Part shown: positions 8,903-53,203 of the stretch, one piece after another
Layout of the letters: each line of letters opens with the position of its first letter
How positions within the stretch are numbered: the stretch's first letter is position 1
Origin: Capsulimonadales bacterium
GTDB taxonomy: Bacteria > Armatimonadota > Armatimonadia > Armatimonadales > Armatimonadaceae
NCBI GenBank assembly: GCA_033762295.1
Contig: JANRLW010000020.1
Location: 1-64,000 of the forward strand
Length of the DNA stretch: 64,000 nucleotides
Direction of reading: 5' to 3'
Position numbers and translations under genes: made by a program
The notes under the pieces: generated by a model
Seen by the model: only the letters and a program-made list of their open reading frames with translations
Told to the model about the DNA's origin: nothing
The model's database searches: none

Positions 8903-10276
8903 ATGGAAAGGCGTATGAATCGAAAAATCCTTCGGGCGAGTCTGTTTGCGTTCGCCCTGACAACTCTGACGGCGGGCCAACCGGCGCGTTGCGCCGAACC
9001 GCCGACGGCTCCGAAAACGACGCTGGATCGAAAGACGCGGGAGGAGGTCTTCGAGATCGTCTGGTCCCGGATCAATGAGCGGTTCTTCGATCCGAAGTTC
9101 AACGGGACGGACTGGGGACTGATGCGGCGGCGTTACGCGCCCCAGGCGGCGGAAGCCGCGACCGACCAGGCATTCTACGAGGTGCTCGAGCGGATGCTCG
9201 GGGAACTGCGTCAATCGCATATCGGGATCATTCCTCCCGAAGCCTATGCCGACGAGGAGAAGGAGCAGGACGCGGCCGATCGACCGGGAACCGTCGGACT
9301 GATCGCTCAGTGGGTCGAGGAGAAGCCGATCATCACCCGGGTCGCGCCGGGCAGCCCTGCGGCCAGAGCCGGTCTTCGCCCGGGGTATGTCCTGACGGCG
9401 ATCGGCAATCTCCGAATGGAGGACCTGATTCCCCGCCTTCGAAAACGGGCGAAGACCGACCGGGACTTTGCGACCTATGTCCGACTCACCGTTCCGCGCC
9501 TGATCGACGGCGCGGTCGATTCGGACGTGACGCTGGAGTATCTGGACGGCGACGATAAACCCGGAACGGTGACCCTGAAACGAGTCCCGGTGGGTGGAAC
9601 GGTCGCGCGTTTCGGCGAACTGCCGCCCATGCCGGTCGAGACCGAGGCGAAACGGCTGGCCGGAGGAATCGGGTATGTCCGCGCCAATATCTTCATGATG
9701 CCGATCCTGGAACCGATCCGTAAAGCGGTGCGGGAGATGAAGGACGCTCCGGGGATCGTTCTGGACCTTCGGGGCAATCCGGGCGGGATCGGCGCACTGG
9801 CCAACGCGATCGGCGGGTCTTTTTTCGCCACGGAAACCAACCTGGGGACCATGAAACTCCGACGGGGGAACATAAATTTCCTCTCTTATCCGCAACCCAC
9901 GGTCTACCGGGGACCGCTGGTCATCCTCACCGACGAGGGATCGGTCAGCACCTCGGAGATTCTGGCCGGCGGTTTCCAGGAAAAGGGACGGGCCTACGTC
10001 ATCGGCGAGGCGACGGCGGGCATGGTCCTGCCCTCGGTGGTGGAGGCGTTGCCGGGCGGCGCGCGTTTGCAGTATGCCTTCGCGGATTATCGAACGCCGA
10101 AAGGCATCCTGCTGGAGGGACGGGGCGTCCTCCCGAATCGGCGCGTTTCCCTGACCCGGGCGGCGCTCCTGAACGGTGAGGACCCGGCGCTGGCCGAAGC
10201 GATCCGTTACATCAATGCGCAGGCGGAGGCCAGACGTCGGCGCAACCCCAATAAAGGAGTCGGAAAGAAACCGTGA
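8903..10276 (+). CDS. S41 family peptidase with PDZ domain, exported
   Basis: Signal peptide; PGSPAARAGLRPG PDZ; LDLRGNPGG; SVSTSE catalytic serine region; EGRGVLP. Confidence 0.88.
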   Translation: MERRMNRKILRASLFAFALTTLTAGQPARCAEPPTAPKTTLDRKTREEVFEIVWSRINERFFDPKFNGTDWGLMRRRYAPQAAEAATDQAFYEVLERMLGELRQSHIGIIPPEAYADEEKEQDAADRPGTVGLIAQWVEEKPIITRVAPGSPAARAGLRPGYVLTAIGNLRMEDLIPRLRKRAKTDRDFATYVRLTVPRLIDGAVDSDVTLEYLDGDDKPGTVTLKRVPVGGTVARFGELPPMPVETEAKRLAGGIGYVRANIFMMPILEPIRKAVREMKDAPGIVLDLRGNPGGIGALANAIGGSFFATETNLGTMKLRRGNINFLSYPQPTVYRGPLVILTDEGSVSTSEILAGGFQEKGRAYVIGEATAGMVLPSVVEALPGGARLQYAFADYRTPKGILLEGRGVLPNRRVSLTRAALLNGEDPALAEAIRYINAQAEARRRRNPNKGVGKKP

Positions 10277-11022
10277 AACGAAACCTGTCGATTGTTCTGT
10301 GCTTTGTCGCCGCGTCCTCGGCGTCGGCGCAAAAAACCCCGGCGACGGGGTCTGCGGCGAAGCCGTCCATCAGTCCGGCCGCCGTTCTGGACCGGTATGT
10401 CGAAGTGACCGGTGGCAAGGCGGCTTATGCCCGCCTCAAGACGATCGTCATGAAGGGAACCATCGCCGTTACCGCCCAGAACCTGAAGGGAACCGTGGAC
10501 GTTCGGGCCAAAGCACCGAACAAATTCTACACCGTTCAGGAAATCAAGGACGTCACCAAAACGACGATGGCGTTTGACGGAAAACGTGGGTGGTCGAAGA
10601 ACAACCTTCAGGGGTTGCGCGACATTACGGGCAGCGAACTTCAGCAGTTGAAGGATCAGGCGTTGTTCAACAGCTCGGTCCGCTGGCGCGAACTCTATCC
10701 GAAGGTCGAAATGATCGGTATCCGCAAGGTGGACGGCAAGGACACGTACGCCATTCGCCTGACTCCCAAAGTCGGCAAACCGACCGTCCAGTACCATGAT
10801 ACGAAGACGTTTCTGATCGTGCGAACCGATTCCGTCCAGGAATCGCCGCAGGGAACCCTGCCGGTGGAATCCTACCTGTCGGATTACCGGGCGGTCGATG
10901 GCGTCAAGACCCCGTTCCGGGTCCGTTCGCGGGTCGCTGCGGCGGAGATTATCACCGAAATCACCGAAGTTCGCAACAATGTGCCGGTTCCGGACAGTCT
11001 TTTCGTCAAACCGAAGGAGTGA
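10273..11022 (+). CDS. Exported LolA-like / outer-membrane lipoprotein-sorting fold protein
   Basis: Signal peptide; LDRYVEVTGG, KAPNK, AFDGKRGW, YLSDYRAVDGVKTPF pattern; overlaps the S41 stop (GTGA). Confidence 0.65.
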   Translation: MKRNLSIVLCFVAASSASAQKTPATGSAAKPSISPAAVLDRYVEVTGGKAAYARLKTIVMKGTIAVTAQNLKGTVDVRAKAPNKFYTVQEIKDVTKTTMAFDGKRGWSKNNLQGLRDITGSELQQLKDQALFNSSVRWRELYPKVEMIGIRKVDGKDTYAIRLTPKVGKPTVQYHDTKTFLIVRTDSVQESPQGTLPVESYLSDYRAVDGVKTPFRVRSRVAAAEIITEITEVRNNVPVPDSLFVKPKE

Positions 11023-11047
11023 CCGGGCGCGTTACGGAGAGTGCCGA

Positions 11048-12214
11048 TCAGGGCCGGACCTGATCGGCAATACGCTTGACTTCCTCGTCGGGAAGCGCGC
11101 TGAACAGCAGGAAGACGTTTCCGGAGGTTTCCCAGATATAGGCGCGTTCCCCCGGTCCCTTCGGGTTCGGAAGGAATCCCGGCGCGGACTTCGTCAGCCG
11201 TTCCTTCAACCGTTCCGGCAGGTTATCGGATTTGAATCGGGTCAACGAGATCACGGAAAGGCCGTTGGAGTATCGAAGGGTGACCCGCGGCCGCTTGCTG
11301 TCCCGGGTAGCCGCTTCGATCGTCCGCAAGGTGTAACCGTTCGGGAGATATCTCGGCTCCGGTACATCCACATTCGCCTGTTGCGCTTCCGCGAGCGATT
11401 TGAATGTGACGGAACGGCGGCTTCGTTCGGCCACCACGGCACCTTCCGGTGGCGTGAAGTCATCGGAACGGAAGCGCGGGTTCAAATCGAGGGAAAGCAG
11501 GTAGGAGGAGGTAAAAACGCGACCATCCTGCCCGACAACCTCCATCTTTAACCGAAGACCGGTACCCCGATCGATCCAGAAGCGGTGTGACGGTCCGGAA
11601 ACCCCGTTCGCCGGCGCGATTCGTATGATCGTGCAGGGCCGGGAAGCGACGGTGTCCTCGCCATCGATGGTGGCCTTCAGTTCCCCCTGGTCGACACGGC
11701 GAAGAATCTCCCCCAGAATTCCGCGAAAGATCGGCAGCATCGGCGGCCGGGAAAACCATTTCCGCTCCCGGGGCTGGTAAACGAACGCCTGCCGGGGCGT
11801 ATCCAGAACGATTTTATTGTCGGGCCGTATGCCTTCGATGCGGACGCCGACCGACGGATTGACCCGCAGCCACTGTTCGGTGTCCTGTCCCTGCGCCACC
11901 TGCCGTACTTCCCGGGCCACATAGGGAACGGATTGGTCGGCGCGTACCATGCGCAACAGCTGCCGCCAGGCCTGACGTTCCTGAGGCGTCAGGGACTTGG
12001 CCTTCCGGGCCAGGTGACTGATCAGGTCGGCGATCTTGTCGGGGTCCGGTCGCGGAGCGTTCTCGACCTGTGCGCGGACCCCGACCGTCAGACCGAGAAC
12101 GAGCGCCGACGCCAGGGCGACCCGAACCGAAAGCCGGCGTCTCCGCCCTCCCTCCGATACGGGAGGCGGGAAAACCGGCCTTCGATCCGAGCATACGTCA
12201 GAGATTCGTTCCAT
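11048..12214 (-). CDS. MucB/RseB-like periplasmic sigma-E regulatory protein
   Basis: GEDTVASRPC...FWIDRGTGLRLK (LolA/RseB fold) plus PRYLPNGY...RYSNGLSVISL C-domain; follows anti-sigma and sigma. Confidence 0.72.
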   Translation of the reverse strand: MERISDVCSDRRPVFPPPVSEGGRRRRLSVRVALASALVLGLTVGVRAQVENAPRPDPDKIADLISHLARKAKSLTPQERQAWRQLLRMVRADQSVPYVAREVRQVAQGQDTEQWLRVNPSVGVRIEGIRPDNKIVLDTPRQAFVYQPRERKWFSRPPMLPIFRGILGEILRRVDQGELKATIDGEDTVASRPCTIIRIAPANGVSGPSHRFWIDRGTGLRLKMEVVGQDGRVFTSSYLLSLDLNPRFRSDDFTPPEGAVVAERSRRSVTFKSLAEAQQANVDVPEPRYLPNGYTLRTIEAATRDSKRPRVTLRYSNGLSVISLTRFKSDNLPERLKERLTKSAPGFLPNPKGPGERAYIWETSGNVFLLFSALPDEEVKRIADQVRP

Positions 12215-12752
12215 CGATTTCGTTGATTACCTCGAGGACGGACCCTCGATCGCCCAGCGATACCGAGGAAGCGTACGCGTTGTGTTCCTGCCACAGTTCA
12301 TTGACCGGGTCGGGTTCGTGGGCGGCTCCCACGGACGGGGTCGCGCGAACGGTGATCCGGTTGGCCGGCGCATCCGGACGGACGGCGAAGAAGGCGAACA
12401 GGCCCATCATGGCGAGAACCGCGCCGGAGGCGAACGCGGGCCGTACGCCCGGACGGTGCCACGACTCCGCGAACTCCGTCCATCGCTCCTTCCAGTAAGC
12501 GAACGGCGAGGCCGGTTTCGGGCGCAGCACCTCGTCGGCAAGACGTCGGGCGAGCATCTCCTCGAAGTTTGCCGACGGCTGCTCCGGCGGCAGGGACGCC
12601 AGAAGCCGTGCGGTCTTCGAGAAATCGTCCGCGACCCGGGCGCAGACCGAGCAGGTGACCAGGTGCTTCTTGATTTCCCAGGTCCGGTTTTCATCCAGCA
12701 TGCCGTCGACATACTCCGACAGCAGCGGTCGTATCGAATTACAATCCTTCAT
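12198..12752 (-). CDS. Anti-sigma factor with zf-HC2 zinc finger and one TM helix
   Basis: C...LLSEYVDG...HLVTCSVC (HxxxCxxC); TM segment AVLAMMGLFAFFAV. Confidence 0.88.
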   Translation of the reverse strand: MKDCNSIRPLLSEYVDGMLDENRTWEIKKHLVTCSVCARVADDFSKTARLLASLPPEQPSANFEEMLARRLADEVLRPKPASPFAYWKERWTEFAESWHRPGVRPAFASGAVLAMMGLFAFFAVRPDAPANRITVRATPSVGAAHEPDPVNELWQEHNAYASSVSLGDRGSVLEVINEIDGTNL

Positions 12753-12864
12753 GACAACATGCTCCGATGGTTCGGATTAGCCGATGTGACCTCCGCCAAT
12801 CCCGTAACTCCATAGATCGACATAATATAACTGCCCTGCAGCCGTGTCCGCCGAACGAGCGGGC

Positions 12865-13476
12865 TTAGCTTTCCAGATACGGGCGCAGGTGTTCCCGCAG
12901 GGCCACCCGTCCGTTAAAGATTCTCGATTTCACCGTGCCAAGCGGGATGCTTTCGGCAGCCGCGATTTCGTCGTAGGCCAGACCTTCGATATCATGCAGA
13001 ATGATCGCGGAACGCAGCTTCGGCGGCAGCTTGCCAAGCGCCTCCTGTATCTGGGAGGCCAGTTCCTTCCGACCGATCACGGTTTCGGGAGCCTGCGACC
13101 AGTCCGGCACATCGCGCGTCGCGCCGCTCTCCTCGTCGTCCGGCGTCAACGGCGCATCCAACGAATGCACCAGGCCACGCTTTCGGCCACGTCGAAAGGA
13201 GTCCACGCAAAGGTTTCCGGCGATCCGGAACAGCCAGGTCGAAAGACTCGATTCCGCCCGGAAGGTGCCGATGCTCGTGTACATACGGACGAAAACCTCC
13301 TGAGTCAGATCTTCGGCATCTTCGGCGTTGCCGGTCATCCTGTAAAGGTAGTTATATATTTTCCCCTTGTACCGCGCAACAATCTCATTAAAGGCGGCAA
13401 GGTCGGCCTTCTGGCAGCGCGAAATAAGCGCGGCATCGCTGTTTTGCAAAGTCAGGCTCCGGGCAAAAAACATCAA
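12865..13476 (-). CDS. ECF RNA polymerase sigma factor (RpoE/SigW-like)
   Basis: DAEDLTQEVFV, STWLFRIAGN, GLAYDEIA, GTVKSRI. Confidence 0.93.
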   Translation of the reverse strand: MMFFARSLTLQNSDAALISRCQKADLAAFNEIVARYKGKIYNYLYRMTGNAEDAEDLTQEVFVRMYTSIGTFRAESSLSTWLFRIAGNLCVDSFRRGRKRGLVHSLDAPLTPDDEESGATRDVPDWSQAPETVIGRKELASQIQEALGKLPPKLRSAIILHDIEGLAYDEIAAAESIPLGTVKSRIFNGRVALREHLRPYLES

Positions 13477-13779: not shown

Positions 13780-14490
13780 ATGAACCTAAAGGATCAGACG
13801 GCGACGAAAGTGACAAAGGTCCGGGCGGATAACCTTTATAAAGCGTTCGGAAGGCGGCCCGTGCTCGAAAATTTCGGGCTGACGGCGGACGCCGGGGAGG
13901 TCGTCGCGATCGTCGGAGGGAACGGGTCCGGGAAATCCACCCTTTTGCGGATCGTCGCCGGGCTGTTACGGCCGACCCGGGGACGGATCGTGCTGGAGTC
14001 CGACGGGGTTCGAGCGACGGAAACGATCGGACGACGACGACTCGTCGGCTACGTCTCGCCCGATCTGCGCTTCTATCCGGAATTGACGGCGCGTGAGAAT
14101 CTGGCGTTCTTCCGGAGCGTCGCCGGACGACCGCCACGCACGGAGGAAACGACCGCCGTACTGGCCCGTGTGGGACTGGCGAAACGCGGCGAGGAACCGG
14201 TCGGAACCTTTTCCTCCGGAATGATGCAGCGATTGCGCCTGGCGTTTGCGTTGCTTTCCGGGACTTCGGTTCTTTTGCTGGATGAGCCGACACTGGCTCT
14301 GGATGCGGACGGGGTCCGCCTCGTCCGGGAGATCGTCTTCGAGCGGCGTCAGGAGGGCGGGATCGTGCTGCTGGCGAGCAACGACCCGCGAGAGATCGAA
14401 TGGGCCGACCGACAGGTGCCGGTGAAGGCGACCGGTCCGTCGGCGGAAACCGGGGAAACCGGGGGAACGGCCAATGGACTGGACCCGTGA
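13780..14490 (+). CDS. ccmA: Heme exporter ATP-binding subunit
   Basis: GGNGSGKST, FSSGMMQRL, LLLDEP; heads the ccm cluster. True start may be GTG 13810. Confidence 0.8.
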   Translation: MNLKDQTATKVTKVRADNLYKAFGRRPVLENFGLTADAGEVVAIVGGNGSGKSTLLRIVAGLLRPTRGRIVLESDGVRATETIGRRRLVGYVSPDLRFYPELTARENLAFFRSVAGRPPRTEETTAVLARVGLAKRGEEPVGTFSSGMMQRLRLAFALLSGTSVLLLDEPTLALDADGVRLVREIVFERRQEGGIVLLASNDPREIEWADRQVPVKATGPSAETGETGGTANGLDP

Positions 14491-15169
14491 AGCGCTGGCG
14501 GTGTTCGTGCGCGAGTGGCGTACCGAATGGCGAACACGGGTCGCCCTGACCTCGACCGTTCTGTTCGCCGTCGGCGCGCTGGTGCTGATCGGTCTGGCGA
14601 AACAGGTCGGTCGCACGGCGTTCGAACCGACCGTTACCGCGACGCTGTTGTGGATCGTCCTGCTCTTTACGGCGGCCAGCGGATTGGGCCGGGCGTTCCT
14701 GCACGAAGAGGAGCGGGGAACCGCCCTGACGCTGCGTCTGTGCGCCCGGGGAACGACGGTCTGGACGGGGAAGTTTCTCGCGAACGCCGTTCTGCTGGTC
14801 GGGATTGCGGTGATAACCGCGCCGACGCTGCTCACGCTGGCCGAAACGCCGGTGCGGAACGTCGGTCTGTTGACTGCGGTGTCGCTCCTGGGATGTATCG
14901 GGATCGCCGCGGTACTGACGACCATGAGCGCACTGGTGGCGCAGACCTCGGCGCGCGGCGGACTGCTGGCGGTGGTTTCGTTTCCGTTACTGACGCCGCT
15001 GCTGCTGGCCGGAGTTCATGGAACGCAGGCTGCGCTGGGCGTTGGTTCGAAACCCGGAGGAATGGTATCCTTCTCCGTGGGAGTGGGGGATGTGAAGATA
15101 CTGCTGTCGTTCGCGGTGATTGCGATAACGGCGTCGTTGCTGTTGTTCGACTTTCTCTGGAACGATTGA
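14474..15169 (+). CDS. ccmB: Heme exporter membrane subunit
   Basis: EWRTEWRTR, FLHEEERGT, LLAVVSFPLLTPLL; about six TM helices. Confidence 0.85.
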   Translation: MDWTREALAVFVREWRTEWRTRVALTSTVLFAVGALVLIGLAKQVGRTAFEPTVTATLLWIVLLFTAASGLGRAFLHEEERGTALTLRLCARGTTVWTGKFLANAVLLVGIAVITAPTLLTLAETPVRNVGLLTAVSLLGCIGIAAVLTTMSALVAQTSARGGLLAVVSFPLLTPLLLAGVHGTQAALGVGSKPGGMVSFSVGVGDVKILLSFAVIAITASLLLFDFLWND

Positions 15170-15183
15170 GGGTGAGATTAGCG

Positions 15184-15840
15184 ATGGCTCAACTGGCGAA
15201 AATCCTGCTTGGGATCGGGACGGCGATCGTCGTGGCCCTGTCCTTTCTGTATCTTCCGGCGGCGGAAGGCTTTCCGTCGCCGGAACTGGCGCGCATCGTC
15301 GCCCTGCATCTGCCGAACGCGATGGCCGGACTGGTGGCGGCGGTTGCGGCGGGATGCTACGGCTGGCGGTATCTGGCCGGCGGGCGCAACCCGCTCGATG
15401 ACGCTCGTTCGCTGGTGGCGGCGGTTCTGGCGACGATCTTCCTTGCGCTGACCACCGTGACCGGAATGGTCTTCGCCCAGGTGCAATGGGGACAGTTCTG
15501 GAATTGGGACCCGAAGCAGACCTGTATCTTCATCCTGTTGCTGATCTTCGCCGCCTATTTCGTTCTGCGGGCCGGAATCGAGGACGAGGAGAAACGGGCG
15601 ACCGTCAGCGCCGTCTACATCCTGTTCGCGGCGGTCATGACCCCGGTGCTGGGCTATATGGTCCCAAAATATCTGCCATCGCTGCACCCGACCAACACAT
15701 CGTTCGACGCCGCCTACCATACCGTGATCTGGTCGGCGTCCGCCTGTCTGATCGGCCTCTATGCGTGGCTGTTCAACCTCGGCGTTCGCTACGAGCGTCT
15801 TCGACTGCATCTGGACGCGATCGTGCGCGATGAGCCGTGA
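15184..15840 (+). CDS. ccmC: Cytochrome c biogenesis heme-handling protein
   Basis: RIVALHLP, WWD domain WGQFWNWDPKQT, SLHP; C-terminal part of ORF 14515-15840. Confidence 0.88.
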   Translation: MAQLAKILLGIGTAIVVALSFLYLPAAEGFPSPELARIVALHLPNAMAGLVAAVAAGCYGWRYLAGGRNPLDDARSLVAAVLATIFLALTTVTGMVFAQVQWGQFWNWDPKQTCIFILLLIFAAYFVLRAGIEDEEKRATVSAVYILFAAVMTPVLGYMVPKYLPSLHPTNTSFDAAYHTVIWSASACLIGLYAWLFNLGVRYERLRLHLDAIVRDEP

Positions 15841-15876
15841 ATTAGGCGAGAATTAGGCGAGAAGGAAAGCATCAGG

Positions 15877-16008
15877 ATGTTACCGTTATTGATCGTTGCC
15901 CTGCTGATCTGGGCGGGCGTCTTCGCCTTCACCTTCCGTGTGGATCAGCGATTGAGCCAACTGGAAAATCGATTCGGCGTCGGGGAATCGGGGAAGGACC
16001 GCGAGTAA
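15877..16008 (+). CDS. ccmD: CcmD-family small membrane protein (43 aa; absent from the ORF track)
   Basis: MLPLLIVALLIWAGVFAFTFRVDQRLSQLENRFGVGESGKDRE: one TM helix followed by a charged tail, between ccmC and ccmE. Confidence 0.78.
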   Translation: MLPLLIVALLIWAGVFAFTFRVDQRLSQLENRFGVGESGKDRE

Positions 16009-16013
16009 TCTCC

Positions 16014-16442
16014 ATGAATACGGAACAGGTTGAGGAAAAGTCGGGCATCAAGCCCGCAGCGATCGTCGGACTGCTGGTCATTCTGGGCGCGCTGGCATTC
16101 GGCGCGAACGCGTTCGTGACCAACCTGACGCCGTATGTCACCTTCAAGGTGGCACGCGAGGCGAAGGGGACGGTGCAGGTCATGGGGAAGCTGGACAAGG
16201 AAAGCGTCGCCAACAGCGAGAAAGAACTCCGCTTCGTCCTGGTTTCCGAGGAGGGCGAACGCCTGCCGGTCTCCTTTACGGCGACCAAACCGGCCAACTT
16301 CTCGATGGCGACGCAGATCACGGCGATCGGAACCTATGACGGCGCGGTCTTCCGCGCCAAAAATCTTCTGGTGAAGTGCCCGACGAAGTATCAGGGTAAG
16401 GAATCCGAAAAGACATATTCGGCCGACAGCCGGGTGAATTAG
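16014..16442 (+). CDS. ccmE: Heme chaperone, CxxxY variant
   Basis: N-terminal TM; LLVKCPTKY in place of the canonical HxxxY. Confidence 0.88.
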   Translation: MNTEQVEEKSGIKPAAIVGLLVILGALAFGANAFVTNLTPYVTFKVAREAKGTVQVMGKLDKESVANSEKELRFVLVSEEGERLPVSFTATKPANFSMATQITAIGTYDGAVFRAKNLLVKCPTKYQGKESEKTYSADSRVN

Positions 16443-16459
16443 GAAAGAGCGGTTCGAAC

Positions 16460-18916
16460 ATGGTTCTGGGTTATCTCCTGACAGGTCTCGCGCTCGCTCT
16501 GACCGTGATCGCGAACGTGTTTTTCGCGTTCGCGCGGCGGCAGGGCGAAGTCTGGGTTGTGCGTGGCAAACAGGCGGTCACGGCGGCGACGGCGGCGATC
16601 GTCGGAGCGGCAGGGTATCTCGTCTATCTGATCGCGACCCACCAGTTTCAGGTCTCGTATGTCGCGGAGTATTCGGCGCGCCGCTCCTCCGCCTGGTATC
16701 TTCTGGCCGCGTTCTGGGGCGGGCAGGAGGGATCGATCCTCCTCTGGACCTTCATGGGCGCGATCCTCGGGTGGACGCTTTCCCGCAAATCCGGGGATAA
16801 GACCGCCCGTGTCTGGCCGATTTTCGGTATCATTCAGGTCTATCTGCTGTCCCTTCTCCTCTTCAAGAGTCCCTTCGCTCTGGGAGAGGGGCCGGTTCCG
16901 GCGGATGGCCGCGGCTTGAACCCGCTGCTGGAAAACATGTGGATGGTCATCCATCCGCCGATGCTGTTCCTGGGGTTCGCCGCTCTGATGCCGGTCTTCG
17001 CCTGGTGTCTTTACGGGCTTCTTTTCCGTGACTGGCATGGCTGGGCGAAAGCCGTGTTTCCCTGGGCGCTCTTCGCGTTTGCCACCCTCGGTTTCGGGCT
17101 GTCCCTCGGCGGGTTCTGGGCGTATGAAACCCTGGGCTGGGGCGGCTTCTGGGCCTGGGACCCGGTGGAAAACTCGTCGCTCGTTCCCTGGCTGTTCATC
17201 ACGGCGCTTCTGCACGGACTGCCGATCCAACTGAAGAACGGCGGGTACCGGGTCAGCAACCTCGTTCTCGGCTTCCTGCCGTTCGCGTTCATGTTCTATG
17301 GAACGTTTCTGACCCGATCCGGCGTTCTGACGGACTTCTCGGTCCATTCGTTCTCCTCGCTCGGGCAGGACGGGTTCTACCTGCTGCTCGGCGGACTCCT
17401 CACTTCGGTGCTGGTGCCGGTCGGCCTGATCATCGGCCGTTTCCGGTCGATTCCGAAGGTCGGCGCGTTTCAACGGATTCTCACCCGGGAGTTCGGATAC
17501 TTCCTGGGGTCCGCGCTTCTCGGTCTGATCGGGTTGATCGTGGCGGTCGGGATGTCCGCGCCCCTGATTACCAAAATCTGGATGGAGAAGGGGGCGGCGG
17601 CGCAGCAGAGCTTCTACAATACCGCCGCGTATCCGCTCGGTATCCTGATGCTGGTAGGGATGGCGGTCACGCCGTACCTCGCCTGGAAGTCGTCCGACGA
17701 CGGGGAACTCGGGAAGCGATTACTGCCGCCGTACATCGCCACGCTTTTGCTGACGATGGTAATGACCGCTCTTGCCTTCACGCTCGGCATTCGAAAACCG
17801 TTCATGGTGCTGTTGTTCGCCGCGTCGATCTTCACGGCGGCGTCCAACCTGTTGTTGATCCTTCCGCGCTTGAAGCATGCCGAGAGCCGGAAAAGCGTCG
17901 GCGGGTTCGTCGCGCATATCGGAGCGGGACTGACTCTGGCGGGGGTCGCCTGTCTGGTCGCGTTCACGCAGAATGCCGAGCGTGTCATGCTGACGAAGGA
18001 TCAGCCGGTGGAGAAACTCGGCTATACCTTCATTTACCGGGGGCAGACGAGCCACGCTTACGATCGGGAACGGAACCACATCCGGGTCGAAGTCCGACGC
18101 GGCAAATATACGTGGGACGCGTTCCCGCGCTACTATATCGCACCGTGGGACAACCGGGACACGGTCTTCGCCAATCCCCCGGCGATTCTCCCGAGCGTCT
18201 ATAATATCAATTCGCCCATTGACCTGTTGCGCTGTCTGCCGTGGAATACGCCGTTCCCGTGGGGTGACCTGTACGTTTCGCTGAATACGGAACCGCAGAG
18301 TCCGCCAATGCTCTCGAAAAACCCCAATCAGGGGTTTACCCTGGCGGCGGGCGAGGAAAAGACGATCGGCGAGTACACGTTCCGTTTCCGCGCCTTGAAA
18401 TTCGATGAAGCGGCGCAGAAAGCGCAGAACAGCCGCGACGAGTTGAATAAACTTCCGCAGATTTTCGTCATGGCGACAATCGATGTCACCTACCGTGGCA
18501 GGACGGAAACGGTAACGCCCCGGCTTCGGCTGGAACGGACAGGCGCGATCTACTCGCTTCCGGTGCCGATTCCGGGTAGGGAGGGCCGCCCGGTCGTGCT
18601 GAAACTGGAACCGCCACGCGAGGAGGAACAGGGCGCCTCCCGGGAGATCACCCTGCGGACCCTGGGCGCGGAAGACCCGTTCGAAACGGTGTTCGTCGAT
18701 GTGTCCACCAAACCGATGATCGGACTGGTCTGGATCGGCGCATTGCTCTATACGGCGGGCGGTTTGATCGCGTACCGGCGGCGAGCGGTCGAACTGCGTC
18801 TTTTCGGGACGTCGGAACCGTCCTCGCCCGAGTCGCATCCGGCGTCCGTCACGCCTCCCGGGAAGGGGAAGGGGAAGACCGGAACGAAGGCTCGACCGGT
18901 TTCCGCCAGGGGATGA
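16460..18916 (+). CDS. ccmF: Cytochrome c heme lyase / synthetase
   Basis: WGGQEGSILLW, GLNPLLEN, HPPMLFLG, WAYETLGWGGFWAWDPVENSSLVPW, SVHSF, AHIG. Confidence 0.93.
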   Translation: MVLGYLLTGLALALTVIANVFFAFARRQGEVWVVRGKQAVTAATAAIVGAAGYLVYLIATHQFQVSYVAEYSARRSSAWYLLAAFWGGQEGSILLWTFMGAILGWTLSRKSGDKTARVWPIFGIIQVYLLSLLLFKSPFALGEGPVPADGRGLNPLLENMWMVIHPPMLFLGFAALMPVFAWCLYGLLFRDWHGWAKAVFPWALFAFATLGFGLSLGGFWAYETLGWGGFWAWDPVENSSLVPWLFITALLHGLPIQLKNGGYRVSNLVLGFLPFAFMFYGTFLTRSGVLTDFSVHSFSSLGQDGFYLLLGGLLTSVLVPVGLIIGRFRSIPKVGAFQRILTREFGYFLGSALLGLIGLIVAVGMSAPLITKIWMEKGAAAQQSFYNTAAYPLGILMLVGMAVTPYLAWKSSDDGELGKRLLPPYIATLLLTMVMTALAFTLGIRKPFMVLLFAASIFTAASNLLLILPRLKHAESRKSVGGFVAHIGAGLTLAGVACLVAFTQNAERVMLTKDQPVEKLGYTFIYRGQTSHAYDRERNHIRVEVRRGKYTWDAFPRYYIAPWDNRDTVFANPPAILPSVYNINSPIDLLRCLPWNTPFPWGDLYVSLNTEPQSPPMLSKNPNQGFTLAAGEEKTIGEYTFRFRALKFDEAAQKAQNSRDELNKLPQIFVMATIDVTYRGRTETVTPRLRLERTGAIYSLPVPIPGREGRPVVLKLEPPREEEQGASREITLRTLGAEDPFETVFVDVSTKPMIGLVWIGALLYTAGGLIAYRRRAVELRLFGTSEPSSPESHPASVTPPGKGKGKTGTKARPVSARG

Positions 18917-51448: not shown

Positions 51449-51960
51449 ACGGCGATAGCCTTCTGGCCGCCGCCATCCGCATCGCCGTTGAGTGCCATGA
51501 GAACCAGCGGGACAAAAACGGCGCACCCTACGTTCTTCATCCGCTCCGGATGCTGCAGCGGGCGCAGGCGGCCGGTTGGCCGATCGAGGTTCGAATCGTC
51601 GCCGTGTTACACGACGTGCTGGAGGACTGTGCGGACCGAACCCCGGAACAACTGCGGAAGGAAGGGTTCCCCCCGGTCGTGCTGGACGCGCTCGATCTGG
51701 TAACGAAACGACCCGAAGAGGCGGGTGAGGTGGGGTACCGGAGGTTCGTCGGGCGGATTTGCGCGGCGGAGGGCGCGGCGGGCCGAATCGCCCGCCGCGT
51801 GAAAATCCTCGATCTGGAGGACAACATGGACATCCTTCGCTACGATGCCTGGTCGGATAAACTGCCGAAGCGCCTGAAGCGATACTTCGAGGCGCATCGG
51901 CGCGTGACCGAGGCGATTCGCGCGAAGGACGAGACGCCGTTCGCCGAACCGGTTACTTGA
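51445..51960 (+). CDS. Stand-alone HD-domain protein (small alarmone hydrolase / Mesh1-like)
   Basis: HENQRDKNGAPYVLHP, AVLHDVLED, VKILDLEDN. Confidence 0.82.
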   Translation: MNGDSLLAAAIRIAVECHENQRDKNGAPYVLHPLRMLQRAQAAGWPIEVRIVAVLHDVLEDCADRTPEQLRKEGFPPVVLDALDLVTKRPEEAGEVGYRRFVGRICAAEGAAGRIARRVKILDLEDNMDILRYDAWSDKLPKRLKRYFEAHRRVTEAIRAKDETPFAEPVT

Positions 51961-53137
51961 TGCCGAGTTTCGCCAGTGCGGCGCGCATTCCCGCCTCGTC
52001 GAACCCGACACTGCGCCAGACAACGATCCCGCGACTGTCGATGACGTAGTTGGTGGGATAGGCCTGAACGCCGTACCGCTTGAAGATTCCGTTCGGCGTG
52101 TTGTCACCCATCACCATCGGAAAGGCGAACTTGCCCTCGGCCGCATACTGATTGATGACGGCTTTGGAATCGCCCAGATTGACCGCGACCAGGTTCAACC
52201 CCTTGCCCTTGAAGGTGTTGTAGATTTTGTTGAGGTGAGGAAACTCCTCACGACAGGCTCCTCAGCCATAGAACCAGAAGTTGACGATGGTCGCCTTCCT
52301 GCCTTTCATCGCCCGGGCCAGCGAAAGGGTTCCGCCTTTCGGTGTCGGTAGCGAGAAGGCCGGCGCCTTCTTCCCGACCGGCACCAGATTCTTCATGTAG
52401 TCCGGCACCCCTCGGGAGGGGTTTGCGGCCTGCTCTTTCATCACCTCCGCCTGATCCCGAAAACCGGCCGGGGGCGTATAGGTGAAGTCGGCGGGCGTCA
52501 CCGCCGCATCGTCGGTCACGATATTTTTGAACGTGAAGCTCATCTGGGGCGTTTGATTCGGTGCGCCGAAAATATCCACCCGCTTCATAATGCGTTCCGG
52601 CGTAAAATAAAAGCGCACCCGCTGCCCCCCCGACGTGTTGGTGCCTGTTGCTTCGATGACGTCCGTCACGATGCCATCGATCGTTTCCTGACCGATATAT
52701 TTCGTCGTCTTCGGCGGGGTTTTCCCGTCATTCAACTGCTCGAGGGTCGGATGGAAAAAGAAGCCGAACGGAGTCGGCCCCATATTTTTCATGCCTTCCT
52801 CGGCCGTTTTTTTGGAATACGTTTTTTCCGATTGGGTCTGCATGAATAACGTGGTTCCGTCGCAGACGACCAGCATCGCCTCCTGTCCCGGCATTTCCAT
52901 CGAAAATCGAATGAAATTGGGGCGCAGGGCACGGAAGGTACCGGAGAGGGTCATCTCCTTGCTCCCCTGTCCGGTCGCCGGACCGCTCACTGACATATCC
53001 GCAGACAAAGATTTAAGTCGGGCGGAGGCGGCCATCGCCTCTTTGAGAATCGCGTCGGATTTTTCGTCGGCATAAGCGGCGGGAAGAACAATCGTCATTG
53101 CCGCTGTCAGGACGATCGGTACGGTACGGTTCCGCAT
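51953..53137 (-). CDS. Putative selenoprotein: signal peptide + LolA-like domain + TlpA/ResA-type redoxin with UxxC (Sec292), 394 aa
   Basis: In-frame TGA at 52262-52264 in VNFWFYG-U-GAC-REEFPHL. The frame continues without shift into ORF 51953-52198 (YGVQAYPTNYVID cis-Pro motif). SECIS-like hairpin follows. AAGGAG SD before ATG 53137. Confidence 0.87.
52235..52251 (-). promoter_or_regulatory. Bacterial SECIS-like stem-loop
   Basis: mRNA UGA-GGAGCCUGUC-GUGAGGA-GUU-UCCUCAC: perfect 7-bp stem, loop starting with GU 17 nt after UGA. Confidence 0.75.
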
Positions 53138-53203
53138 TCGGTTTCTCCTTTCCGGGGCGAAAAGGGCAGGTCCCGGCACGTCAGAATTCACCGACCGGGC
53201 GAA

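Follow-up and report, generated by a model that had tools for sequence, protein, structure and literature searches.

A predicted exported selenoprotein joining a LolA-like domain to a UxxC redoxin domain in Armatimonadota

We examined a 64,000-nucleotide (nt) stretch of DNA (the window: positions 1 to 64,000, forward strand, of contig JANRLW010000020.1, GenBank assembly GCA_033762295.1) from a Capsulimonadales bacterium of the phylum Armatimonadota. The subject is one gene at 51953..53137, in which an in-frame TGA almost certainly encodes selenocysteine (Sec) in the active site of a thioredoxin-fold (redoxin) domain that is preceded by a signal peptide and a LolA/DUF2092-like domain. The coding strand, left unstated in the original prediction made from the letters of the window, is the minus strand. 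The features of the gene are as follows.

51953..53137, minus: complete gene, encoding 394 aa, with codon 292 read as Sec and TAA as the stop (sequence, translation with TGA as U).
53145..53149, minus: Shine-Dalgarno-like AGGAG, 7 nt before the ATG (sequence).
53069..53137, minus: predicted cleavable signal peptide of signal peptidase I type, residues 1-23 (judged by eye; low predicted local distance difference test score, pLDDT, over residues 1-21).
52454..53068, minus: LolA/DUF2092-like beta-clam domain, residues 24-228 (Pfam, fold search, structural Z score, motif alignment).
52388..52453, minus: linker, residues 229-250, of varying length among relatives (alignment, structure model).
51956..52387, minus: ResA/DsbE/TlpA-type thioredoxin-fold (redoxin) domain, residues 251-394, with U292-G-A-C295, E298 and a Y-P361-T loop (Pfam, fold search).
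52262..52264, minus: in-frame TGA read as selenocysteine 292 (translation, Cys/Sec alignment of relatives).
52235..52251, minus: bacterial selenocysteine insertion sequence (SECIS) hairpin, +11 to +27 after the TGA, with a 7-bp stem and an apical GUU loop at +18 to +20 (folding, covariation).

From the ATG at 53137-53135, 291 codons are open before the TGA at 52264-52262, and 102 more follow up to the TAA at 51955-51953. Translation with TGA as U gives 394 residues with a single U at 292, in the context NFWFYG-U292-GA-C295. In the table-11 list of open reading frames (ORFs) the gene appears as two frames, one that ends at 52262 and one of 81 aa that begins at 52198, and the 21 codons separating them are open; this reproduces the split, the open in-frame interval and the U292 product first described. 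The predicted signal peptide ends in A-Y-A before D24, and by eye A-x-A-D is recurrent across the family while the signal region has neither a lipobox Cys nor a twin-arginine motif. Pfam places DUF2092 (PF09865) at residues 28-225 (29.3 bits, cut-off 21.2), LolA (PF03548) at 56-221 (28.6 bits, cut-off 23.6), AhpC-TSA at 254-374 (77.1 bits) and Redoxin at 254-383 (63.7 bits), the latter two also above their cut-offs. With a 23-row alignment as input, AlphaFold2 gave a model of mean pLDDT 87.8. The layout proposed earlier, a signal peptide ending AAYA, a LolA/DUF2092-like domain and a redoxin domain, is thus borne out by eye for the first part and by Pfam and fold searches for the other two. A promoter and terminator scan gave no signal exceeding shuffles.

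The source genome (94% complete) encodes selA (514.9 bits), selB (318.3) and selD (378.6), as well as a tRNA-Sec gene (selC, 69.9 bits, anticodon UCA), so that all four genes the original prediction had asked for are found above cut-off. Across genomes, selA is present in 27 of the 29 TGA-bearing genomes versus 37 of the 61 with only non-TGA matches (hand count; the TGA position was checked in TGA-bearing genomes except G315 and G120), and the remaining two of the 29 have selB. In G281 the TGA gene and selB are present and selA was not found in that 92% complete genome. Genome-wide recoding of UGA was considered and rejected, as TGA terminates 1380 of 2774 long open stretches in the source genome and is an ordinary stop elsewhere. 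The suggested scan for further Sec paralogs in the source genome came up empty by both tblastn and profile search; other genomes carry two to four TGA copies of the family gene.

Two other genes of the source genome also hold an in-frame TGA. One is selD itself, with a single TGA (L011:1531-1575, G000:C128) that places Sec in C-A-G-U-A-S-K, and the G-U loop of its hairpin also starts at +18. The other is a CMD/AhpD-like gene (L287:122-706, minus; G000:C117, TGA at 16714) with the TGA in C-F-Y-U and a 7-bp hairpin whose GTT loop at +18 is in a register identical to that of the LolA-like/redoxin gene; judging by its sequence, it is likely a second selenoprotein of this genome, of the known CxxU class. 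A genome-wide hairpin scan passed 1890 of 117942 TGA triplets and is too noisy for listing a selenoproteome.

Relatives were drawn from 41 kin genomes, a genome collection (61 loci), a metagenome pattern and 401 genomes of the phylum (plus 20 further regions). The metagenome pattern selects for TGA (at least 120 matches; 80 loci were fetched, of which 26 match the redoxin domain by hand count), so ratios are also given for genome-derived genes. After removal of duplicates and of distant WATW-type paralogs the family set holds 95 distinct members, with two paralogs that have other codons at the Sec site left outside this filter. The codon aligned with residue 292 is TGA in 66 members and TGC or TGT in 29, and among the 73 genome-derived members, which were not selected for TGA, it is TGA in 44 and Cys in 29; the Cys members carry CGPC or CPPC thioredoxin motifs. 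This recurrence of TGA in 44 of 73 genome-derived members makes chance or a sequencing error unlikely. In the first set of relatives, each of the 44 complete genes stays open for 98-106 codons after the TGA, and in 29 two-domain TGA genes the median identity to the query is 56% after the TGA versus 29% in the N-domain. The pattern that would have spoken against the original prediction, relatives never having TGA and a decaying downstream part, is therefore the opposite of what we found, and the Cys/Sec pairing it anticipated at residue 292 is present.

The hairpin falls within all four limits of the bacterial SECIS model, which allows a loop of 3-9 nt with G in its first two places, a stem of 4-16 bp, a distance of 16-37 nt from the UGA and a minimum free energy of at most -7.5 kcal/mol (PMC13188914, in part): here a GUU loop follows after 17 nt on a 7-bp stem at -11.1 kcal/mol. 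Taken by itself, the local hairpin is no more stable than shuffled sequence (z 0.66 for 100 nt and -1.34 for 40 nt, with no significance over 60-100 nt), and the SECIS evidence is carried by covariation across relatives. At least five of six stem pairs are kept in 57 of the 66 TGA genes (40 of the 44 genome-derived ones) versus 4 of the 29 Cys genes. Where R-E-E becomes R-A-E in the protein, an A-U pair is turned into C-G through a synonymous change of a Pro codon: among 58 TGA genes with the standard motif, GAG (Glu) is paired with CCT (Pro) in 42/42 and GCG (Ala) with CCG in 15/15, while CCT makes up 113 of 1066 Pro codons elsewhere in those genes and is used in none of the four Cys genes with Glu at that stem position. 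In 49 TGA sequences, two-sided changes occupy 14 cells, a number reached in 0 of 500 shuffles, while slid controls yield no more than 5 such cells; three pairs show such changes, which 39 of 500 shuffles also reached. Covariation this clean, an amino-acid change offset by a synonymous codon, is unusual, defines the SelB target in the phylum and offers a ready filter for further hidden selenoproteins. We are nearly certain, from sequence comparison, that UGA292 is decoded as Sec with the help of a SECIS inside the coding region and of SelA, SelB, SelC and SelD, which makes the product a two-domain, 394-aa selenoprotein.

Titled relatives belong mostly to Armatimonadota (Armatimonadaceae, Chthonomonadaceae and Fimbriimonadales), and 90 of the 401 genomes of the phylum have a family match at E ≤ 1e-45, often as paralogs. 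A LolA-like N-domain was scored in 47 of the 66 TGA members and 23 of the 29 Cys members. Sec and Cys forms are interleaved: a quick tree of 113 redoxin domains shows 16 changes, of which strong branches force at least 8, and a single Sec clade was rejected by the approximately unbiased (AU) test (p-AU 0.00014, with five rows removed, namely four long branches and one non-Cys/Sec paralog). Parsimony at equal cost gives 9-14 Sec-to-Cys losses and 2-7 gains, with loss cost doubled 12 gains and 5 losses, and with it tripled 21 gains and 1 loss; the direction of change depends on these costs, and the quick trees, on 147 columns, have many poorly resolved forks. Real Sec-to-Cys reversions are favoured because four Cys genes retain the SECIS stem, one of them 98% identical to a TGA gene. 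That gene (L269, in G183, with TGT) matches its TGA counterpart over 2.1 kb (compared with L187 and L268), has an intact SECIS and sits in a genome with selA, and by its sequence has either switched from Sec to Cys very recently or contains a base error. Sec/Cys substitutions of this kind are described as rare in bacteria (PMC13188914, in part), and the interleaved versions lend themselves to studying what advantage Sec brings in the oxidising periplasm.

Tandem copies also occur, either as two adjoining Sec genes (L053, also listed as L053/L236; L184/L185) or as a Cys copy beside a Sec copy (L272, L092). In some loci (L082/L270, L088, L091, P0017) a long TPR-containing N-part takes the place of the LolA-like domain before the same redoxin; such TPR-type fusions have Sec in an Armatimonadota genome and Cys in Isosphaeraceae and Verrucomicrobiales records.

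The warning that standard pipelines would call a truncated gene also proved right. The database entry for the window's own protein is the 291-aa form, and the sequence ends right before the Sec codon in 10 of 24 fetched homologs and in 52 of the 150 best 50%-representatives. One truncated relative is named 'LolA' in GenBank (HLV79120.1), and names of this kind can lead astray those who survey Terrabacteria for the Lol pathway.

In the AlphaFold2 model the redoxin domain matches DsbE (3gl3_A; Z 20.7, root-mean-square deviation (rmsd) 1.9, 138 aligned) and ResA (Z 19.5, rmsd ~2), and its nearest solved relatives are ResA, DsbE and CcmG. The spacing of U292, C295 and E298 equals that of ResA C74, C77 and E80 (ResA numbering from entry titles). 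In 73 full-length representatives P361 is kept in 72, E298 in 62 and both active-site Cys/Sec positions in 63. The domain thus has the thioredoxin fold with redoxin insertion, the (C/U)xxC motif and the Pro loop of the broad TlpA/ResA/DsbE-like class. It falls short of the cut-offs for the named proteins (ResA NF002854, 80.4 against 170; TlpA NF047696, 29 against 230; DsbE TIGR00385, 43.5 against 123.15), as do three Cys homologs, and of those for Sec-redoxin models (NF041054 WAxxUGC_long, 29.2 against 300; NF053656 TUGYCR, 15.7 against 100; NF040769 SelL-related, 18 against 120); all 17 NCBIfam hits of the protein lie below cut-off. Machinery, Cys/Sec pairing, covarying SECIS and fold searches agree in placing Sec at the attacking position of a UxxC redoxin, as first proposed.

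The N-domain matches LolA 6f3z_B with Z 16.1 and rmsd 3.5 over 184 aligned residues at 17% identity, and Foldseek returns LolA at E 4e-12. It keeps R72-P73-N74, D93-G94 and F-x-Y-x-P-P (pattern F-x-x-x-P-P) as in E. coli LolA, and has no conserved Cys among the full-length representatives. The likeness is seen by profile and fold searches, as phmmer of the N-domain alone against the PDB gave a best E of 0.07. With its beta-clam fold and Pfam scores above the gathering cut-offs, the domain belongs to the LolA-fold superfamily and DUF2092. It does not qualify as LolA proper, reaching 31.7 bits against a cut-off of 112 for the LolA equivalog TIGR00547 and being fused to a redoxin instead of forming a single-domain protein; in the 94% complete source genome the best LolC/E match (TIGR02212) scores 165.8 against a cut-off of 362.45, and Lnt is present. 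The earlier description as lipoprotein-carrier-like therefore stands for the fold and not for LolA itself. Elsewhere in the window, a stand-alone LolA_like protein is encoded at 10273-11022 (plus) after an S41-like protease, and within 10273-13476 its gene adjoins a MucB/RseB-domain gene, an anti-sigma-like gene and an extracytoplasmic function (ECF) sigma factor gene (minus strand).

The mechanism we favour, at somewhat better than even odds and from sequence comparison, is that the protein works as a soluble reductase in the periplasm, receives its electrons from DsbD and accommodates hydrophobic clients in its LolA-like cavity. Reductase activity is inferred because the domain is close to ResA, CcmG and TlpA and its U292/C295/E298 spacing equals that of ResA. 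After export and removal of the signal peptide, the protein would act as a thiol-disulfide reductase of the ResA/TlpA kind: Sec292 would attack a disulfide or an oxidised cysteine or selenocysteine in an envelope client, Cys295 would resolve the mixed bond, and the genome's DsbD would re-reduce the Se-S bond. TlpA proteins act as reductants in the periplasm: they receive electrons from DsbD-type proteins and hand them on to a peroxiredoxin of that compartment, and they reduce ScoI and CoxB ahead of copper loading (PMC3322552 and PMC6669012, both in part). The source genome encodes a complete DsbD and a free DsbD-N domain protein; the latter, separate and exported, precedes the full DsbD (L281:76-2691, G000:C73), whose linker has a short internal duplication. 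A client- or lipid-binding role for the N-domain is suggested because it has no conserved Cys, keeps the LolA motifs and shares a fold with a hydrophobic pocket. More tentatively, then, this domain without redox residues could be a hydrophobic-cavity module for the client, the client's lipid anchor or the membrane, and might stand in for the membrane anchor of ResA and TlpA. Clients would probably be Cys- or Sec-containing envelope proteins that need reduction, either ahead of metal or haem loading or once they have been oxidised, and carrier binding may be coupled to redox control, as first proposed.

Several observations weigh against this picture. The cross-genome counts are descriptive figures inflated by kinship, as kin are not independent, and the link to DsbD is one of co-presence in a single genome. 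A LolA-like domain was not scored in 19 of the 66 TGA members, and although some of these are truncated or diverged, several are clearly a signal peptide plus redoxin only or have another, TPR-like N-part; given these members, the N-domain is dispensable for the Sec redoxin. Conversely, one or both active-site Cys are missing from 10 of the 73 full-length representatives although both domains are present, so that not every member can depend on redox chemistry. No family-wide neighbour was found across 90 loci (540 kb, mechanical ORFs), and thus no client is indicated; only one subclade (9-10 of the 90 loci) shares neighbours, and those of the query, a der/engA-like GTPase and an HD-domain gene, are not common to relatives.

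Paralogs that have lost active-site Cys with both domains kept include P0049, P0060, P0076, P0097, P0099, P0168, P0181, L275 and L279. In the subclade with shared neighbours (L079:70-8248; L081, L245, L252, L254, L257-L259, L267, L280), the family gene, Sec or Cys, is flanked on one side by a 1635-aa peptidase M28/MacB/FtsX permease fusion and on the other by a 682-aa membrane protein with no Pfam or NCBIfam match; judged by sequence, this arrangement is a conserved, unexplained envelope operon.

Other readings must be set against the favoured one. That the TGA is a true stop, a nonsense mutation, a sequencing error or is read as Trp or Gly is scarcely credible: the 291-aa form is what databases contain, the local hairpin lacks significance by itself and one database homolog (P0006) has W at the site, probably a pipeline reading, but TGA recurs in 44 genome-derived genes, is always followed by a full-length conserved domain, alternates with Cys codons and is a normal stop for those 1380 other open stretches. 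If Sec is accepted, the unit could still be mainly a chaperone or redox sensor in which UxxC is a switch and not a turnover site, with the LolA-like domain binding a hydrophobic client or signal like RseB/MucB or GerS. The 10 representatives with an incomplete active site would fit this, as would LolA-fold regulators (PMC6363788, in part; GerS from a search listing) and the ECF sigma-70 regions fused before the LolA-like/redoxin unit in P0084, P0175 and P0182 (3 of the 150 best representatives). Fusions at the C-terminus of ECF factors are promiscuous, though, and a Sec codon with covarying SECIS kept in 66 members, together with both Cys positions kept in 63 of 73 representatives, fits selection for catalysis; we consider the sensor or chaperone role unlikely. 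A selenium-dependent lipid hydroperoxide peroxidase, in which the LolA-like cavity extracts oxidised lipid for Sec to reduce, would make sense of Sec beside a lipid-binding fold, of peroxiredoxin-type structures matching the C-domain (Z ~17) and of AhpC-TSA as best Pfam hit. It is decidedly unlikely given that the motif is UxxC and not the TxxU or UxxT of peroxiredoxin and glutathione peroxidase (GPx) selenoproteins (Table 1 of PMC13188914, in part), that ResA and DsbE are the best structural matches and that the Cys members have CGPC or CPPC.

The protein might also be the organism's true LolA, carrying lipoproteins to the outer membrane while the redoxin keeps cargo cysteines reduced. It is the sole PF03548 match in the source genome, it lines up with E. 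coli LolA at the R-P-N, D-G and F-x-x-x-P-P motifs, Lnt is encoded, the gene comes after an FtsX/MacB-type permease fusion in one subclade, and the closest ortholog has lgt and lspA ~4 kb away. This is very unlikely in view of the TIGR00547 and LolC/E shortfalls, the presence in 90 of 401 genomes, often as paralogs, the proximity of lgt/lspA in just 2 of the 90 loci, the existence of four or more further LolA-like genes in the source genome (by our own profile) and a Lol system reported as practically absent from Terrabacteria (bioRxiv 2021.05.31.446380, in part). A dedicated CcmG/ResA of cytochrome c maturation is highly improbable. ResA and CcmG are the nearest structures, and the window has a ccmA/B/C/E/F-like cluster at 13780-18916 (plus; labels partly from reading of ORFs) without a listed ccmG-like ORF of at least 140 aa, but the gene lies 33 kb from this cluster, no ccm gene is among shared neighbours, the genome has several other CxxC redoxins, and the protein fails the ResA and DsbE cut-offs and has no membrane anchor.

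Going beyond the client-holding reductase that we favour, it is possible, though doubtful, that Armatimonadota, as diderms reportedly without Lol, combine the LolA-fold cavity and the Sec reductase in one machine: it would take hold of the acyl chains of an oxidised lipid or a lipid-anchored envelope protein and reduce this cargo at the same time, during transport or repair. If so, the protein would be a redox chaperone that depends on selenium and acts on lipidated cargo, would belong to a broader set of exported selenoproteins in the phylum and would come from a family that returned from Sec to Cys many times, which is rare in bacteria by the account cited above. As it stands, a well-supported selenoprotein architecture with predicted export is added, and the LolA-like/redoxin fusion is made testable. 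The surprise is limited by the UxxC thioredoxin fold being the commonest kind of bacterial selenoprotein.

The novelty left open by the original prediction holds in part. Literature searches (selenocysteine/LolA/thioredoxin fusions, Armatimonad selenoproteins, DUF2092), covering few subscription papers and no supplements, returned no paper on the fusion; 'LolA' occurs 0 times in the main text of PMC13188914 and PMC9312934, the LolA fusion is missing from the 119-family list in the available part of PMC13188914, and the available parts of PMC4807772 and PMC12419801 make no mention of it. The Sec-redoxin class itself is already catalogued, with cd02966, PF00578 and PF08534 UxxC entries in Table 1 of PMC13188914 (in part). 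The fusion architecture and its clade are therefore what is new, and supplements may hold such sequences under 'redoxin family'.

Compared with those catalogued Sec redoxins, our protein shares the thioredoxin-fold domain, Sec at the attacking Cys position, a coding-region SECIS and Cys homologs, and differs in its N-terminal LolA/DUF2092-like domain, its NFWFYx-U-GAC motif and its Armatimonadota-centred clade; it is set apart from the Table 1 entries by description, not by representative sequences. Cys-type fusions, automatically named (JGI 'peroxiredoxin/outer membrane lipoprotein-sorting protein') and without a paper in our searches, have the same two-domain architecture with Cys only and no SECIS, and the source genome has one distant WATW-CGPC paralog of this type (C106). 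With LolA (PF03548, TIGR00547) and DUF2092 (PF09865) proteins it shares the beta-clam fold, R-P-N, D-G and C-terminal F-x-x-x-P-P motifs and a periplasmic location (here predicted), and LolA folds have a common hydrophobic pocket with differing functions (PMC6363788 and PMC4520260, both in part); unlike them, it has a fused redoxin, 17% identity, a patchy, multi-copy distribution and no LolC/E above cut-off. Finally, it departs from ResA, CcmG (DsbE) and TlpA in having Sec for the first Cys, a predicted cleavable signal instead of a membrane anchor, an extra 205-aa domain, no link to ccm or cox genes and scores below the equivalog cut-offs, while it resembles them in fold (Z 19.5-20.7, rmsd ~2), the xxC-x-x-E motif, the Pro loop, predicted export and a DsbD in the genome.

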